Positions 40,755-53,448 of a stretch of 54,249 nucleotides of DNA are shown here, piece by piece. Position 1 is the stretch's first letter, and every line of letters begins with the position of its first letter. The stretch comes from Catajapyx aquilonaris (Eukaryota). Where the stretch lies: the NCBI GenBank assembly GCA_000934665.2, contig JYFJ02002604.1:1-54249 (forward strand), given 5' to 3'. The translations under genes and the position numbers were made by a program. The notes below the pieces were generated by a model, which saw nothing but the letters and a program-made list of their open reading frames with translations, was not told the origin of the DNA and searched no databases.

Positions 40755-41253
40755 GTTCCTTCTGAGACCCCGCTCCACCTCAACTCGAACAACATCAACA
40801 CGATCTGGAAACTCCCTGTCAGAGACAAACGAAACAGATCATACCAGTGTTGTCTACCTTGGTGATGGACAGCCTGTGAAGATTGGTGCAGATCCTGATG
40901 ATAAGGGAAAGGGCAAGTATGGAAGAGACAAGGTGAATAGGCCTAAAAGAGGCAAGCAAGAGGAAGAGGACATTGGTGTGGAGAAGGACACTGATGTGCA
41001 GAAGGACACTGATGTGCAGAAGGACACTGATGTGCAGAAGGACACTGATGTGCAGAAGGACACTGATGTGCAGAAGGACACTGATGTGCAGAAGGACAAC
41101 CAAATGCCACAGGAACATCAAGAGCCGCTGCAACAGAAGCAGCAGGAGCCTCAGCAGAAGAAAAGAGGGCGCCATGGGAAGATGAAGAAGATCAAGGAAA
41201 AATACAAGGATCAGGATGACGAAGAAAGGATGTTGAGGATGCAGATTCTGCAG
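40755..41253 (+). CDS. NEMF: NEMF exon 6
   Basis: tttgcaag|G; ends KRGRHGKMKKIKEKYKDQDDEERMLRMQILQ|gtaaat (conserved NEMF motif); contains QKDTDV tandem repeat. Confidence 0.9.
40975..41098 (+). repeat. 18-bp coding minisatellite (GTGCAGAAGGACACTGAT)x~6-7 encoding QKDTDV repeats in NEMF
   Basis: Direct reading of tandem copies in exon 6. Confidence 0.95.
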
Positions 41254-43545: not shown

Positions 43546-43905
43546 ATGGGTCTGTCAGACAGCCGTTCCGTTCGCTCGCCCCGAAAATTTCGCTGCGATC
43601 GCTGCGTCCAAAACTTGTCAGACAGACACTCGCAGTTGAGTGCAGCCCACAAGAGGAACAGGCAAATTCCAGTCGGCAGGAAGGGGGCAGTCAGGGCGAG
43701 GGGGGTCGTGAGGTGGAGGAGTGGTTGGGGCGGGAAGAGGTCTCGACCAATCGGCGCCTGGCGTGCCGCAGCAAGGGGGTCCTGCCTCGCTGTGACACCC
43801 CCAATTTCCTCGACCGACGAGGCCCCCAGGGCACAGCGGAGCGCAACGCTCGCCAGTGTGACCCATGCGCGCGAAGCGAACGGAACGCCTGTCTGACAGA
43901 CCCAT
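43546..43905. mobile_element. GC-rich MITE
   Basis: TIR ATGGGTCTGTCAGACAG(c/g)CGTTCCGTTCGCT; TSD not evident. Confidence 0.75.
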
Positions 43906-44343: not shown

Positions 44344-45550
44344 GTAAGTGACATTATTTTATAAACTTTCTGTCATTATTTTAACTGTGCACATGGCTCT
44401 TGTTTTACAAAGGAGTGAGTTTTCATACATGGACACAGAATCTGCAATTCCATGTTCATCTTTGAATACACACACTGTATAACCAGGGATTACTTAGCTT
44501 AGGGATACGAAAGTGCACCGTTTTCCCGTAAGGAGGGCCGCAGTTCCGGTTCGCAAGAGCGCTCTGGCGGCCGGATGGATGAACTAGATAAACAACCGAC
44601 GATCGGGCTGATACCGTATTCATATGAATACAGTAGCCTACTGAAATGCCCTATTAATGCTATTATTGACGCAAAATTATGCGCAGATATAATTATTTAT
44701 TGCCAATATTCGACGAAACCGGAGTGATTCATGGGATGACATGGCCTGGTGGATCTGAAATGTGTACATATAGGAAGGATAGACGACACTCCAAATTTGT
44801 TTCAATTAGCCCATGCTTTATTTGCACAATCCATCCATAAGTTGAGAAATGTAACCCTGAAATACATTAAAATATACGGAATATATCTAGGAATATCTAC
44901 CTTGAAAACCGTACCAGAAGAATTTCATGAAATCATCATACTTTGGGAGAATTAAATTGAAGCAGTGAGAATCAGAAATTATTATGTCAATATTTGCCAT
45001 TTTGCCCAGGCTCAAAGGTGGAACTGTAATCATCTGGCCGGGATAAAACATTTTTCTATGAAAATATGCATGATAGAGGTCTAGAATTTACCCTTATCTC
45101 AAAATCGCCAAAAATTGACTCAGCAACTTCTGGTTCTGGACTGCTTCAATTAATACTTACCTGCAGCTTACCTATCAGCACTTCAGATTCCTGAAAATAT
45201 GTTCATGTTCGCGAAGTGCAAGAGTCGGTTTACTTTAGTGTCATCGGTGATGGTCTTTCCTGAACCATGTTTCTCGATTAACACCTGAGAAACATGCCTG
45301 GAAGTGCCTGACCCAGGCATGAGGATCAATTTGATTCACTCATCATGTACATTATTTCTTGTCTGTCACCTGCAAATAAAGAACATAATTCCTATATATA
45401 AGGAGACTTTTGGGACACCCTGCATATTAATCACATAACATAATTGTATTATAACAATTTTTCAAATCAACTGAAACATTAGGACAACATTTACCAGATT
45501 GAAGGTGGGAAACGTTAATTTTCCACACACTTAGATATGAAATATATAAT

Positions 45551-48516
45551 TCACAACAATTTCATCATTTTCCTATTCTTTCTCCCACCATCCTTCATTT
45601 CCCTGTTCTTCTTCCCACCATCCTGCAAGTCTCTGTTTTTGAATCGTACCCACCACAAAACTCTTAACCTGCAGAAAAGGTGCAGTAGTTGTGCCAACGC
45701 ATTTTCAGAACACAATGAAAATGATCCCTGTGTATCCTTCAGCAGATGAGCCTGCAAATTTTCCACAACCCTCACCTTATGGGCTAAATCTGGAATGAGG
45801 ATCAAAAATTTTCCCTCCATACTTGACAGAAATTTGAAAAATTTCTCACTTGCCAGGGTTAAACCTCCGCAAGGCTTATCGCTACAACCTGTCAATGTTT
45901 TTTCTTGGCAAAATATTTGCTGGGGAGCATCACCTTCTTCATCTTTTTTAAGCATGATGTGCTTACACAACAAGCAATCATGAGACCTCAAAAATTTCTT
46001 GCAAATGTATCCAGCGACATAGTATAATGCATTTTGTGCAGGGACATGAAAATCATCAATAGTGATCTTAGGAAACTTTGTTACATTTTCCTCATCCATT
46101 GACCCTACATCCTGAACCATGGCTTCCTTACTCTGCATGACAGAACTAAGTTCAGCTAGAACATCTCGTTCTTCTGTTTCACAATTACCCATGTCAGAGG
46201 GTTTCAGGAAGGACTTGGTGAACACCTGCCTAAATGCAGAAAAAAATTGTGCAGGCGTTGGGTGATCATTACACCCATTTTTCCCCCTGATCACTCCGAA
46301 TGTGCTCTCCAGGCTATCTTGATTGAGATGGCGTGTGCAGAGATACTCAATGTCAGGACGGCCACGAATCTCATTCCACATCATCATAATTGCTCGTATT
46401 GAGAGTTGCCACCCCAACAAGCAGTCTGGCTGCCGAACAGCATCAAACCTACAACTACTCAGTAAAACTAATATCTCCTCCCAAAATGCCAGGTGAATGG
46501 AATTCTCACTAAGTGCACACTTAGCTGGCTTAAGGCCATCCCACCTGCGACTGCTGTTAAAGGTATCAAACAACCTGTCCACCAGTTGCAGCCAATCTGC
46601 AGTATGCCTAGCCTCAGCCGGAATTAACTCCCACCGCACATAACTTTGTACTGCTGCTGCCATTGAATAGCTAAGAACCTGAGATGCAAACTTAACCTTC
46701 ATTTTCTTGAATGGTCCTAATGCAATGTGGCGATGTGTAATTTTTGGTATGAGCCTCAGCGGTTGGTCAAGTTCTTGGCCACAAACACTCTCTATATAGC
46801 TCCACCTAACAAGGTGCCCATCCCACTGTAGATCGTGAGCCTTAATGTTGTTCCGTATGCTTTTAAGTAAGTGGGGGGGATCGTACATGAAGAAAATACG
46901 TTCCCCATCTATGTCTGCATACGGTCTGTCAGGTGTTACCCCTAGTGCAGTATAGGCATTTCGATTGTTGGACCCTTGATCCGCAATGACCATCTTCACT
47001 TTTAGGCCAGTGTCCCTTATAGTTTGCAGCGCACCCTTCATTACATTACGTACTGCAGATCCTGGCATTGGCCCATTGCTCATGTAATAGCCTAACACTT
47101 GCTTCCATTTCTTAAACATCCTCTGTAACAACATGACTGTAGCATGAGTTGCTACCTTTCCTGGCTGAGAACTCTCATGACTGGTGAAGCCAGTTATCGA
47201 GTCACTAGCTGAACTGTACGTTAGCCCTGGGTTCACCTTCATCTCATCAATCATCAAACTACACATCTTGCTCCTTTCATCCATTGACAGGGCTTTCTTT
47301 TTTAAGGCAGTGAGGACAACGGGCAGGATGCCACTCTGAATGTGAATTTTAGATAACCACCCTTGCAAAGACCTGACAGCTGGCAAGGTGCATGTTTGGG
47401 CCAGGTGCCTATATGCAGCTGGACTATGGTAAAATATGTTCAATGCATTCACTTTCTCCTGCTCTGTATACCTGCGACCCTTAGGTTTGCATTTACTCAG
47501 CCTCAGCTGCATAAGCAACAGCTTACCAAACTTGGCAGGAAGGTGCTTCATTGCCAAGCGTTGCAACATTTTCACCTCCAAATCCTCCTTCATGCAGGCC
47601 TTCTCTTTCCACTTGTTAGCTTGCTTAACGAAGGTGTTAGCACGATACAGCTTCCCACGTACTGACTTCAAGTTCTGGCGAAGATGAAAGAGTCTTTTTT
47701 TTGTGCGTGGAGTCGGATTGCTGGGACCCATGATGCCTGGCCTCGTTGGAGGAGTAGAAGGATCATCTGGCTGGTCTAATAAATTGGCATTATCAGAATT
47801 GCATGCTCACATGCTAGCATGTTTCCCACTATGGGTAAATTATGCAAGGCAAATATACTAACCTGTGCTAGGTTGGCCGAATGGTACAGCATGCCAGTGC
47901 TGGGTAGATGATGTTGGTGTTGGTGGACCATGCTGCAGGTCTAATAAATTTGCATTATCAGAATTGCATGCTCACATGCTAGCATGTTTCCCACTATGGG
48001 TAAATTATGCAAGGCAAATGTACTGACCTGTGCTAGGTTGGCCGAATGGTACAGCATGCCAGTGCTGGGTAGATGATGTTGGTGTTGGTGGACCATGCTG
48101 TAGGTCTAATAATAAATTTGCATTATCAGAGGTTTCCCACTATGGGTAAATTATGCAAGGCAAATACTAACCTGTGCTAGGTTGGTCGAATGGTACAGCA
48201 TTCGCTGTTAGCGTCTGGCAGCTATCATTCATAAAGGAGCTTCTAGGAAAATGATCGCTGCACAGACGCTGAACCCGATTCAGATATGTAGCCTCCTTCT
48301 GCAGGAAATCGTCCCGTCCACATGCAACGCACCATTTCTTGCACCTGCATCACCAGACATGCATTTTGAAATATTTTGGCATTTCAATTATATAAATGTG
48401 TACAATATTTACCTTTCGGGCTCTCGAGGAAATCTGAAGAAAGCGAGATCAGGCCTCTTCCTCCTCGCGTTGAAACACCCTTTAGCGGCGCAGACATGCC
48501 CTCCACCACGGGCCAT
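45551..48516 (-). CDS. P-element/THAP9-type transposase, 5 predicted exons (48516-48413, 48344-48172, 48105-48028, 47940-47863, 47775-45551), 885 aa
   Basis: THAP: CAAKGC..FFRFP..W..LCSDHF..AVP; core: IDEM, ADQGSNN, YDPPHLLKSIRNN, KMKVKFASQVLS, FDTFNS, LNQDSLESTFGVIR; all junctions GT-AG and in frame. Confidence 0.9.
47772..48200. repeat. ~165-bp tandem repeat (about 2.6 copies) inside the transposase gene; each unit is one intron plus a 78-nt exon
   Basis: Near-identical units ggtctaataaatt..gcattatcaga..cccactatgggtaaattatgcaaggcaaat..acctgtgctaggttgg. Confidence 0.92.
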
Positions 48517-50189
48517 GTTACTTCATAATGTAATCCTGGGAGTACGGAACAGGAGGGATGGAGGAGGGAAGGGATTACTTACTTTATATTAATATAAAGT
48601 AAGCAATCCCTGAGGAGGGTCCAACTACCAAATACAACTACTACTATAAACCACGGATGGAACGATTTGTGGTACCCGCCCTAGCGACGCCACTGTTCGG
48701 GCCGGTTCGGACTGGTTCGGGCGGGTTCGGGTGAAACTGGAAGATGTCCCTAGTTAGACAGTTACAGCTTTGACATTTGCATCCATCCGGCCACTAGAGG
48801 CGCTCGTAGCGAATCGCGCCAGTAGCGACATCAAGCGACTTGCGCTGAAGCTTGAAGTTTCATATCCCTAAGCTAAGTAATCCCTGGTATAACTTACAAC
48901 TTACGACCCATACATAGTGAAAATTATTGTAGGTTATAAGTTTGTTGGAATAAGAAGTCCCCATGCTTTAGGCAGCTGCATCATTCCATCTGAACTCAGA
49001 CAAAGTTGGTGCCTGACTATCTCGGATTTTGTTGAAAAAACTCCTAGGTGTACACACCCACAACGTAATGAAATTCCAAGTTTGAGCAGCATTGCACAAT
49101 ACATGGAGTAAGAGGCCATGCTAAAAATTGGCCTCCGAGGAAATTCAGCTGAGTTTCACAAATCCGCTTTGGCCTTAAATGATACAAATCTAGTGAACCT
49201 GTATATCAAAAGAATGAAGAAGACTAGAGAAATACAATGGTGCAAATAGTTCCCACATAAAATACGTGAAATACTCATGGTAACAAAAAAATATTTCAAT
49301 GGCTTTGATTTTTTAAATAGCCAAATTGACTACTTCAGTACTAGTAAGTAGTCCAGTAAGTAGTGTAGGAATGTACAGAAGTTCTGTACTTACCTAATCA
49401 ATGCTACTTTTGCACCTGTTTCGAGTCACAACATTTTTGCCCCCCCCCCCCNCCCCCCCCCCCTGGGCCACTCCTTCGCATGCCCCACCGGCTGAGAACT
49501 GCTGATGTAGAGGGAAAACTCTGCCAGGAGGGGACACTTCTTCATTTATTTCCACCACTATACCAACAAATAGCCATATTAGTCAAACAAAATTCTACCT
49601 TACCCAAATCCCATAGTTTACGCGCCCCCAAAAAGTGGAGGGGTGGGGTAGTAAACAAAATGTGACAAAAAATCCCTGTGAAGATTACATGGACTTTAGA
49701 ATTGATAATGATGAAGAGTAACAATGGAGCTAGGATGGCACCAGAGTTAAAGTTAATTTGACAGTTAACAGCTGAAAAATATATGATTACACTTTGGACA
49801 GTGAATTTCGGTGGGGTCTGGTAATAATTGCTGTCACTACATTAATTTGTTACATAGCAGGAGATTTATTTTAATGACGAACCTGAGGGGCCACACTAAC
49901 CCAAAGACTAAATTGAAATTAATTACAAAAAATTTGTCGCTGAATTAAAAATGTCGATATATCGTTTAAGTTTTCAGAATTTGCTACCCCTTTGCTGAAC
50001 TACATTATTAACATTGTTATTTATTAATAAATTAAAACGTGATGACATTGTGTATTTAGACCTCAGTGCAATGTGCTACGATAAAAAAATTTCAATTGAA
50101 TGAATGTGAAATGGCTGCCTATATTATTGTGCCAAGTTGCATTCAGAAAATCCACTGACAACACTTACACTTCCCTTGTAAGTAGCAAG

Positions 50190-50562
50190 CACGGTCATAT
50201 AAGTAAGGTCTGGTCACTCCCACCCACCCCCTGCCGACGTGTTTTGCAGAAGTTGCTCACCTGAGAGCGCCATGAGACATTTCGGAGGCCAGGATAAGTG
50301 GCGACCCTACCGGACTAGGCTGAACTTTATAGGTACGAAAGGGGAGGGCTACATTGGGGGGCCCAACATGGCCGCCGGCGGCCATGTTGGGCCAGCATGT
50401 AGCCCTCCCCTTTCGTACCTATAAAGTTCAGCCTAGTCCGGTAGGGTCGCCACTTATCCTGGCCTCCGAAATGTGGTCTCATGGCGGTCTCAGGTGAGCA
50501 CCCGCTGTAAAATGCCTCGGCAGGTGATAACGCCAGAACGTAGTATAAGTGTCCGGGGGCTG
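50190..50562. mobile_element. Spacerless palindromic hAT-like MITE
   Basis: Palindrome centred at 50376/50377; direct repeat GTAGCAAG at 50182-50189 and 50563-50570. Confidence 0.8.
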
Positions 50563-50825
50563 GTAGCAAGCATGTGAATATGAACACACCATTAATGACT
50601 TGACATTTAAAATAATAGGGTCTATTGACAAATTTTAAAAATTATATCGTACATGTAATTACACCGGCATCAATGCCATGATAACCGATTGTATTTCACG
50701 TGTGAAAAGTTCTGGATGTGTGGTTAAAATGTCATCTTTCAAATTTTGAAAATATGGTTGTTAATGTAACCATGCCCCAAACTTATGTGACAGGAACATC
50801 CTTATGCTGTAGCCACAGTAATATA

Positions 50826-51353
50826 CAGGGTGTTCCCTGTAACCCTGTAAAGACTTGAATGGGTAATAGAGGGGACCAAGATAAGTATTTTTCACATTGG
50901 AATCCATGTCTGGAAACACCATATAGAGGGGGTTCACAGACAAGGAATGGGTGTGCTCAGACGCGTCAGGGGGGAGGCGCTAACGAGCGGACCATTTAGT
51001 TACTAGGTGCACGGATAGTAAACATCATTGCATCGAGCAATAACCTGGCAACAACAGAGCCACCTAGTCACTAAAGCCTGCTTGCTAGGAGGCGCGTGGA
51101 TGGTAATATTAGTAAACAAGGACTCTGTTGTTGCCAGGTTATCGCGAATTGTGCCGTTGTTTACTATCCGCGTGCGCCTTAGCAACTAAATGATCCACTT
51201 GCCTATCGCCTGATGCATCAGAGCGCACTCGTTCCGCATCTATGAACCTCCTCGAGATGACATTTCCGGACACAGGTTCCTATGTGAAAAATACTTATCT
51301 TGGTCCCCTCTATTACCCCTGCAAGTCTTTACAGAGTTACAGGGAATACCCTG
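50826..51353. mobile_element. Tc1/mariner-type MITE
   Basis: TA|CAGGGTGTTCCCTGTAAC...GTTACAGGGAATACCCTG|TA, long diverged arms. Confidence 0.85.
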
Positions 51354-52884
51354 TATAGGATGTTGTTACTCTGCCAAAGTTGACAGTCCACCAAGTGTGG
51401 CACTGTGACAGAGAGATGGAATAGTCACTTCTGGCAATTTGCATTTGAACAGGTGTGCCACTTCCTCGACCTATTTTAAAATTTTTCTGGCATGCACAAC
51501 ACATGCAGGGGGCAATTTTGTTGTTAAAACTATTTACAAATAAGATTCTGCTCCCATCAAACAATATGCAACTGCGCTAAAGATGTATACAGTTCAACTT
51601 GTAAGTCCACCATCTATATTGCAACTGCCTACTAGATGGAACAAAACAAACCCATCTGGTTTCAACTCAGCATTACATTATGCATGGGCTTTATTGTTCT
51701 GGTAGAGAAATATCAGTTGTAAATAGCTCAATGTGAAAAGTGTACGGTCTGTATGGGCATGTGTCATGCAAGCAAGAAAAAAAAATTGAAATCAAGTAAG
51801 GATGATCCACACTGATGTAAACCCTAACTCAGGACACCCATTCAAATGAAGAAATTTTTTGACATTGCTAGGAGTGACTAATCCATTACTGCCATGTTGC
51901 CACACTTGTGGCCCACCGGTGGTATCTCAGCCTTGCTGCGGGGGTGGTGGTGGTGGTGCTTGTGTTGCTTGTGTTTCTCCAACAACCCTGAGAACTATGT
52001 CAGTGTAGCTTCATCTATTGTCAGGGTCATCCAAGCCGGAAGCCTTTTTGGGGTAGGAGACAGACAAAGAGAGCATCAGTCAATTCTTCTTTCTACCTTC
52101 TCATTTGGGTCAATAGTACAAAAGGTGCAATTTCATATCCAAAAAAAATAAATGTAAAATAATGTCCTTTGAAGAAATATTTTTTAAAAATAAAAATAGT
52201 TTTTACGTCTGGTGTTCCCACAAAAATAACGGCCGAGATCGGAGAGGAGATCTGGAGGATTTTATAACAGTCTTTGTTTTTGTCCATGGATGTGACGAGA
52301 AACCTTGGGACAAAATTACTCATGCAATAAAATCGATGCAATTTGGAACTTCAGGACAAATAATGCACTAGCCTTTACCTTCAGTATTCCTTTCTCCATT
52401 ACTCTTAATATAAAAAGTGAAATAACGTCTTATGCCTTGCATAAAACAACTACGAAAACAAAACTACGAAAGTGAAGGTTGGGACAAGCCACGGACGTGA
52501 CATGTCACACTCTGTGACATAAAGAAATATATGAAAGAATTTTCTCATTACATATTTGTTATGTGCCCCGTATTCCGCAAGTTGCAATCTTATTTCTTTG
52601 CATGTTATCTGGTTTTCAGATGTTATATTAAGTCCAGAAATTAGCTGGGACATGAAATTGCAGGTTTTTTTCACTCTCTCTCTCTCTCTCTCTCTCNNNN
52701 NNCCCCCCCCCCCCAATCTGTCTATATTGTAATTGACAGAATGTCTCAGTTACTTAGGCTCCTTCCCAATCAAAACAACAAACAGCTACACCCTGTATAT
52801 TGTGGAGATCTGAAACATGGTTTTGAAAAACTCGCTAAGGCTGGGCTGCATAACTTATTGTAAACTCTAAACAAGTCATTCATG

Positions 52885-53319
52885 CAGGGTGACGGGAAAC
52901 TCGCGGACAATCGCCAGGTAAACTTATAGTACTCACAAAACTAATATAGGGACGAGCAATTAGTTTTGGCCTCTGTTGCATAGTTAATGCGTACGGCGCC
53001 TTTAAAGTGTAGAGGGCAAAATACAAGGTAACGCGACAAAGTGCACGGGTGTTGTACCCGAATTCTTATACTCTGATGGGATTTGATCACCTATTGCACA
53101 TGGACGATGTGTTAGGGTACCAAGGCAAGGGACCGGAGGCCCTCGAGCTGACTTTTGCTCCTTTGAAGCTGGCGGAATGGATGTGACGTCACGAAACTTT
53201 GACAGCGCCATAAGCAATAACTATGCAACGGAGCCCAAAACTAATTGCACATCCCTATATTTGTTTTATGAGTACTATCAGTCTACCTGGTGATTGTCCA
53301 CGAGTTTCCCTTCACCCTG
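52885..53319. mobile_element. Tc1/mariner-type MITE
   Basis: CAGGGTGACGGGAAACTCG / CGAGTTTCCCTTCACCCTG, ~100-bp TIRs. Confidence 0.82.
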
Positions 53320-53448
53320 CATATGAACAATATGGGATCAAACACTTGTTCTGAGTTTACCTCGTTTATGCAACCAACCCTAATTATTAACAAGTGACTT
53401 CGTACTGCATGACTTGCGATGGAATCAGCCCATTCTGTAATTTTTCAG

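Follow-up and report, generated by a model that had tools for sequence, protein, structure and literature searches.

In the Arabidopsis gene TOUCH3 (TCH3), two tandem internal duplications (Knowles & McLysaght 2006; Gao & Lynch 2009; as cited in PMC4974935) are described as having copied a whole intron together with flanking exon sequence, which is intron multiplication and not intron gain (PMC4974935). Tandem exon duplicates are reported from 7–17% of metazoan genes (PMC3342872). In the Rogers model, as set out in PMC3265369 and PMC2891723, exon sequence becomes an intron when an exonic AG/GT proto-splice site is duplicated in tandem, and the protein stays the same. Lineages of the DNA transposons that make up the P superfamily are described as having gained introns independently, with intron duplication named as a favoured source (PMC3698922). 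P elements leave a double-strand gap, and slippage or template switching during its repair is given as the accepted source of rearranged copies (PMC4168063). The literature we searched, which lay mostly outside subscription journals, Repbase Reports and supplements, contained no description of an intron-spanning duplication in a transposase linker.

Here, we analyse a tandem array lying between THAP domain and catalytic core in a P-superfamily transposase gene from Catajapyx aquilonaris (contig JYFJ02002604.1; the whole stretch analysed, 54,249 nucleotides, is called the window). Judged by alignment, the array is a multiplication of an existing intron, a process known from ordinary genes. As in the published account of TCH3, a whole pre-existing intron was copied with its splice sites; it stands in three copies in the window (94/96 and 117/120 identical bases) and once in the closest relative, locus L045. 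Unlike TCH3 as described there, the array lies in a mobile transposase gene where it lengthens a low-complexity spacer, it includes a 45-nt block that matched none of the sources compared, and such duplications recur in unrelated families of one genome. The array shares tandem, frame-symmetric exons and copied splice sites with metazoan exon duplication as reported in PMC3342872, but its exons each combine an exon end with other sequence, and their peptides are identical. Mutually exclusive exons were considered and rejected, given the identical peptides, double inclusion that stays in frame and an 87-nt intron between the two exons. As in the published Rogers model, tandem duplication increases the intron number; unlike in that model, the intron pre-exists and the protein grows. 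De novo intron gain was rejected because introns 3 and 4 duplicate intron 2 and inclusion adds 52 amino acids. The original prediction had spoken of intron and exon gain by tandem duplication; derivation of the units by internal tandem duplication is upheld, but what was multiplied is an intron that already existed.

The host element and its array

The array lies within a transposon whose limits are marked by terminal inverted repeats (TIRs) and target-site duplications (TSDs):

44484..48886, minus strand: P-superfamily DNA transposon, 4,403 bp (TIRs and TSDs, Pfam, PDB match)
48887..48893, no strand: 5'-side TSD, 7 bp, GTATAAC on the plus strand
44477..44483, no strand: 3'-side TSD, 7 bp, GTATAAC on the plus strand
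48858..48886, minus strand: 5' TIR, 29 bp (28/29 complementary), starting CAGGG
44484..44512, plus strand: 3' TIR

The element is a member of the P superfamily. Its transposase has an N-terminal THAP (C2CH) domain (PF05485, 31.7 bits against a cut-off of 23.9, E 2.8e-7), followed by matches above cut-off to PF12017, PF21787, PF21788 and PF21789. A helix-turn-helix (HTH), a split RNase H with a GTP-binding insertion, and the DDE and D(2)H motifs are present, and the catalytic motifs IDE, ADQG, DPPH and DSLE were found in the spliced model. The sole PDB match is the Drosophila P transposase 6P5A (E 2.8e-35). A protein search returned 56 hits among 4,343 candidates, the best of them 33–38% identical to the transposase; at no more than 38% identity, these hits were uninformative for the linker. 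THAP domains are said in PMC7776569 to be confined to animals.

The combination of THAP, P-type core, TIRs and MITE derivatives is shared with Drosophila P, Galileo, 1360 and the D. buzzatii P element with its MITE BuT5, as these are described in PMC3698922, PMC4168063 and PMC7776569. The TSD shares its 7-bp length with that of Galileo and differs in this from the 8-bp TSD given for Drosophila P (PMC3698922, PMC4168063); in sequence, the GTATAAC of the window would fit a GTnnnAC type such as Galileo's GTANTAC. Membership of Galileo was rejected, since the window TIR is 29 bp against Galileo's long TIRs and the gene has four predicted introns against an intronless Galileo (PMC3698922, PMC4168063). 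The introns also set it apart from 1360, which is described as intronless (PMC3698922).

Other repeats were noted in and around the element. At the end of the transposase gene (45565-45637), 30 bp are duplicated in tandem and in frame, which repeats a basic GG(K/R)KNR motif. The 5' region of the element contains a 42-bp perfect-type palindrome holding part of the TIR sequence (48570-48611), at which the MITEs break, and a 10-bp tandem repeat (48695-48731). Elsewhere in the window are nested inverted-repeat structures, probably unrelated MITEs (50230-50524, 50822-51357, 52882-53322 and 43546-43905), and an 18-bp minisatellite of about 7–9 copies, possibly coding (40931-41134).

The gene model on the minus strand, in the order of transcription, is as follows:

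48413..48516, minus: predicted coding exon 1, 104 nt, ATG and first half of THAP (same exon in L045 and L046)
48345..48412, minus: predicted intron 1, 68 nt, phase 2, within THAP (same position in L045 and L046)
48172..48344, minus: predicted coding exon 2, 173 nt, second half of THAP and AVP motif (PF05485)
48106..48171, minus: intron 2, 66 nt, phase 1, copy A1 of the ancestral post-THAP intron
48028..48105, minus: candidate exon M1, 78 nt, phase 1/1, ACC plus X1 (48102-48058) plus a 30-nt copy of the end of exon 2
47941..48027, minus: intron 3, 87 nt, copy A2
47863..47940, minus: candidate exon M2, 78 nt, phase 1/1, one synonymous difference from M1
47776..47862, minus: intron 4, 87 nt, copy A3
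45551..47775, minus: last coding exon, 2,225 nt, remaining linker, HTH, RNase H core with GTP-binding insertion, C-terminus and stop

The array spans 47773-48201 on the minus strand and is the top-scoring of 18 tandem-repeat rows in the window (TRF period 165, 2.2 copies, 96% matches, score 661), with a third, partial copy 144 bp further on. A repeat of about 165 bp had been predicted; TRF gives that period, but the first one measures 144 bp, because intron 2 lacks about 21 nt found in introns 3 and 4. The alignment resolves the array into the order A1-X1-A2-X2-A3, in which block A comprises the final 30 nt of the THAP exon, the entire intron and ACC, and block X is 45 nt long. A1 is identical to A2 and A3 at 94/96 aligned bases, with indels that shorten its intron by 21 nt, and A2 matches A3 at 117/120 bases. 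X1 and X2 differ at one site, and the repeat units at 4/165 sites.

Splice signals were copied along with the introns. The donor of exon 2 at 48172 is ACAG|GTTAGT, those after M1 and M2 are ACAG|GTCAGT and ACAG|GTTAGT, respectively, and M1 and M2 are each preceded by TTTATTAG. GT and AG are intact in all three intron copies, and the acceptors have poor pyrimidine tracts. Every junction in the array is phase 1, and each candidate exon adds the peptide DLQHGPPTPTSSTQHWHAVPFGQPST, so that the AVP motif ending THAP at residue 84 is repeated at residues 110 and 136. The coordinates, splice motifs and peptide given for the micro-exons in the original prediction all hold on re-examination of the sequence. 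So does the claim that each exon can be skipped without a frameshift, as products with none, one or two candidate exons are 833, 859 and 885 amino acids long and all open. Retention of intron 2, 3 or 4 leads to an early stop after THAP. The last frame, of 751 codons, is intact with its catalytic motifs, and 49% of the linker between THAP and core is proline, serine and threonine.

The segment present in introns 3 and 4 and missing from intron 2 (47807-47828 and 47972-47993) contains a 14-bp perfect palindrome and, upstream of the likely branch point, a pair of AG dinucleotides; folding of this insert region was not significant against shuffles (z -1.03). A snap-back origin or a splicing hairpin, suggested by a 9-bp inverted match in M1, was rejected because folding was no better than in shuffles (z -0.46 and +0.99).

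Origin of the units and recurrence in other P families

L045 is 51–66% identical to the window protein, depending on the part. It has the same THAP-internal intron and then a single phase-1 intron of 327 nt with the donor ACAG|GT and no extra exon. This single-intron state implies that the extra units in the window are derived, and the comparison supports their origin by internal tandem duplication. A small element with inverted ends (L045:3747-3868) lies inside intron 1 of L045 and brings its length to 298 nt, against 68 nt in the window. The nearest relatives by DNA, L047 and L048 (89% and 94% identical), match over the core only.

The 3' part of each new exon copies the THAP exon end, AVP included, at 29/30 bases, as had been predicted. 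The remaining block X is harder to place: for 45 of the 78 bases, no source could be identified. Had exon end, intron and next-exon start been copied plainly, X would equal the beginning of the last exon; it does not, and the array is therefore not a clean one-step copy. Apart from ACC, the 5' part shows no more than a non-significant resemblance to the last-exon start (21–22/48 bases, p about 0.23–0.25 against shuffles), and comparison with the upstream part of exon 2 gave p 0.37–0.50. Across 12 tests on the last exon, exon 2 and block A and on their reverse complements, no match reached significance (p 0.23–0.96), nor was there any further match in the genome at 3 mismatches or in loci L005–L054. 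Our preferred reading is that X represents the former start of the last exon, which an in-frame deletion would have removed from the final copy; taking 36 nt out of M yields ACCAGC, the six bases with which the last exon begins. Alternatively, X could be filler DNA from a repair junction. Duplication of a whole unit, as originally proposed, thus agrees with the derived state seen through L045 and through the pair L116/L129 described below, but a single copying step leaves block X unexplained.

To place the array among other P elements of the genome, we took the upstream regions of 60 of 87 PF21787 matches and added 8 earlier loci and the window element, 69 sequences in all. A THAP exon lies upstream of the core in 24 of them (4 weak, E 2e-3 to 7e-3), and the other 45, which are truncated, decayed or THAP-less, were dropped. 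The 24 sequences form 21 clusters, and an intron-spanning tandem duplication between THAP and core is found in four: that of the window and 3 of the 20 others. All four are at phase-1 introns, and their units are unrelated.

In L072:1047-1664 (minus orientation, G000:C6561), the THAP-exon end, intron and next-exon start are duplicated, and the new exon of 162 nt is open; all 5 of its 5 exonic indels relative to its templates are multiples of 3. A decayed copy in the same cluster, L027:878-1229 (G000:C11191), has a new exon of 157 nt that is out of frame. L116:2817-3587 (G000:C8304) contains two 105-nt exons, open and in frame, the second with a weak donor (GTCCAA). Its sister L129 (G000:C14937), 89–96% identical, has exon, one intron and exon, without the duplication. 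The number of units thus differs between copies of that family, and this pair is the cleanest case of an intron-spanning duplication in the genome. The third, L089:2248-3137 (minus orientation, G000:C1559), carries an older 384-bp intron-spanning duplication with 73% identity; its 131-nt new exon breaks the frame, and the copy itself is decayed, with a core spread over three frames. The new exons of L072 and L116 are the expected chimeras of next-exon start and previous-exon end. Only three of the four independent first events are in frame, for which the chance is about 1 in 9 by hand calculation.

Variation in repeat copy number, one of two routes by which the spacer was predicted to vary, was not seen for the window array itself. 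The region from exon 1 to the linker occurs once in the assembly by DNA search, which returned in addition only a 53-bp match of 83%; this proved to be a small THAP-end fragment and was rejected as a second array copy.

Two more clusters, those of L046 and L101, have minisatellites within linker exons. L046:2931-3212, L061 and L101 belong to related P families with proline-rich linker minisatellites of 24–27 nt (L046) or 78 nt (L101), and in L046 the minisatellite forms an extra 282-nt phase-1/1 exon. Upstream of its ATG, L046 has three 96-bp repeats at 148/142 spacing.

None of the 30 core stretches, which total 46,125 bases with some redundancy, contained a direct repeat of at least 60 nt. 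With the window excluded and the strict setting applied, there were 3 events in 21,207 linker bases against 0 in 148,174 background bases (p 0.002). At three looser settings the counts were 4 against 3, 5 against 5 and 5 against 7 (p 0.006, 0.004 and 0.011). The thresholds behind these values were chosen after the cases were known, and the background is mixed flanking DNA and not matched introns. Sequence comparison indicates that intron-spanning linker duplications arose independently in several P families of this genome.

Predicted splicing of the array

With moderate confidence, we favour a duplication of an existing intron in which the two extra exons are mostly included and yield a longer, tolerated spacer. 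The ancestral gene, of the active type, would have had one short phase-1 intron directly after THAP. A tandem duplication inside the gene, covering exon end, whole intron and next-exon start, would have carried working splice sites as a block, and a second duplication would have copied the 165-bp unit again. At 78 nt per new exon the frame is kept, and the exons fall in the spacer rich in proline, serine and threonine between THAP and the dimerisation and HTH part, where the enzyme may tolerate them. In the Drosophila structure, THAP and most of the dimerisation domain are described as unresolved and presumed flexible (PMC7776569), and a flexible insertion has been proposed as a linker in zebrafish THAP9 (PMC10983969). 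Introns under 250 nt are reported to be recognised across the intron (PMC9225289). Since the copied sites resemble their templates, inclusion of both exons would be the likeliest default, with the three near-identical introns each spliced separately and mainly an 885-amino-acid form made, its spacer longer by 52 residues.

The duplications themselves may have arisen by slippage in gap repair after excision. In THAP or core, a duplication would be expected to break the enzyme, and in the linker it would survive if its exonic part is a multiple of three; because the linker is short in exon sequence, a duplication there almost has to include an intron. The recurrence would then follow because, within the gene, such duplications survive only in the linker, which is mostly introns. 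The sequence data show the anatomy, the open frames and the parallel cases, and that the repeat is real and derived; splicing, tolerance and slippage are inferred. Several things disturb the clean picture: block X without its source, the out-of-frame exons of L089 and L027, both decayed, the in-frame count of three in four, the weak second donor of L116 and the poor pyrimidine tracts of the acceptors in the array.

Of the other outcomes, the one that survives best, though we consider it unlikely, is a variable spacer. The equivalent donors and acceptors would compete, and transcripts with none, one or two of the exons would occur in substantial shares, altering the reach of THAP to subterminal sites; in a stronger form, skipping would be regulated, as P elements regulate IVS3. 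Every exon combination is indeed in frame, but complete skipping means a 397-nt intron where the flanking introns are 66–87 nt, and short introns are reported to favour nearest-site pairing (PMC9225289). Tandem exon duplicates are described as often alternatively spliced, in a source concerned with mutually exclusive splicing (PMC3342872); M1 and M2, however, encode the same peptide, so that nothing would be gained by choosing between them. Splicing is known to control P elements, and mobility of THAP has been proposed to fit different end spacings (PMC7776569). The enrichment of duplications in the linker would fit as well, although tolerance alone also explains it. Skipping is thus possible, but would not be the expected default for introns of this length.

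We think it rather less probable that the array is mostly removed as one 397-nt intron (48171-47776), with M1 and M2 as pseudo-exons and a protein of 833 amino acids. L045 has one intron of similar span here (327 nt), the skipped product is open, and new exons that are out of frame do occur, in L089 and L027. The internal sites, however, are near-exact copies of the outer ones and offer no sequence reason to be ignored; each 78-nt exon is in frame without a stop, and the parallel exon of L072 has indels that keep the frame.

Possible activity of the family and integrity of the array

The TIR pattern of the element occurs 11 times in the assembly, with a single full copy of the 4,403 bp, whose transposase gene is open. 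Two complete MITEs, L038:1501-2208 (708 bp) and L043:1501-2230 (730 bp), on contigs G000:C5540 and C8695, are built from the first 315 and last 420 bp of the element and are identical at 704/708 aligned bases. Exact 7-bp TSDs flank both MITEs (2 of 2 with both ends visible). The TSDs seen, GTTATAC/GTATAAC twice and GCTTGAC once, do not suffice to define a consensus.

The stretch is contained in four DNA runs, all from a single sample that may also have been the source of the assembly, and contigs from three of them and from one further run were compared (29 of 281 pieces, short reads only). In run X5, of the same species label, the array region had no coverage. The MITE joint 44901-48584 has high depth in the three stretch-containing runs and appears in X5 as well. 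A contig of run X3 joins 44483 to 48882, with a 5-bp terminus remnant between two TSD copies, which reads as an empty-site allele; in part of the sample, excision may have left this footprint. In run X2 a contig stops at 44484, the expected fork, and depth within the element is 0.73–0.84 of that in the flanks. The MITEs and the empty-site joint in one of the four runs are indirect signs of transposition of the family.

These observations bear on a further reading, in which the short introns, being weak, frequently stay in the transcript. The outcome would be transcript decay or a truncated product with THAP alone, possibly a repressor, so that the copy is damped or has been killed. Retention of intron 2, 3 or 4 would indeed stop translation soon after THAP, truncated THAP-bearing repressors are described for Drosophila P (PMC3698922), and the region is single in the assembly. 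We nevertheless regard impaired expression as very unlikely, as the 751-codon frame and its catalytic motifs are kept, and as MITEs with identical termini and exact TSDs, together with the empty-site allele in one run, suggest recent transposase activity.

The repeat itself is real. Contigs of all three stretch-containing runs end at 47816 and restart at 48137, with zero differing letters. Both positions follow from a 31-mer graph of the assembled sequence, and both one-exon models predict 47850 for the first. The breaks imply that at least two insert-bearing introns with different neighbours are present in the reads, which argues against mis-assembly. By rough back-calculation, depth of the shared stretch relative to unique sequence was 1.8, 1.9 and 2.8 in the three runs; two units are likely, and the ratio of 2.8 makes a third possible. 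That the array is an artefact or has the wrong copy number is extremely improbable: the short-read data from one sample and the ratio of 2.8 leave it some room, and against it stand contig ends that fit the two-exon model and misfit the one-exon models in 3/3 runs, the depth ratios as roughly calculated, and units distinct at 4/165 sites.

If the exons are simply included, the array is an ordinary floppy linker grown by exon duplication. A bolder idea is that duplication of the post-THAP intron acts as a length dial, used repeatedly by P-family transposases, in which exon number, through copy number across elements and skipping inside one, would set the reach between THAP and core and tune activity or the match to subterminal sites in element and MITEs. 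We hold this to be quite doubtful. If it were true, the four independent events would reflect selection and offer a natural series for intron multiplication in transposons. The series of 833, 859 and 885 amino acids lends itself to testing how P transposition depends on the distance from THAP to core. What is new is the recurrence in P linkers of one genome, which is more notable than the single array. With copied sequence still 73–97% identical, four families and one unduplicated sister, the process is directly checkable.
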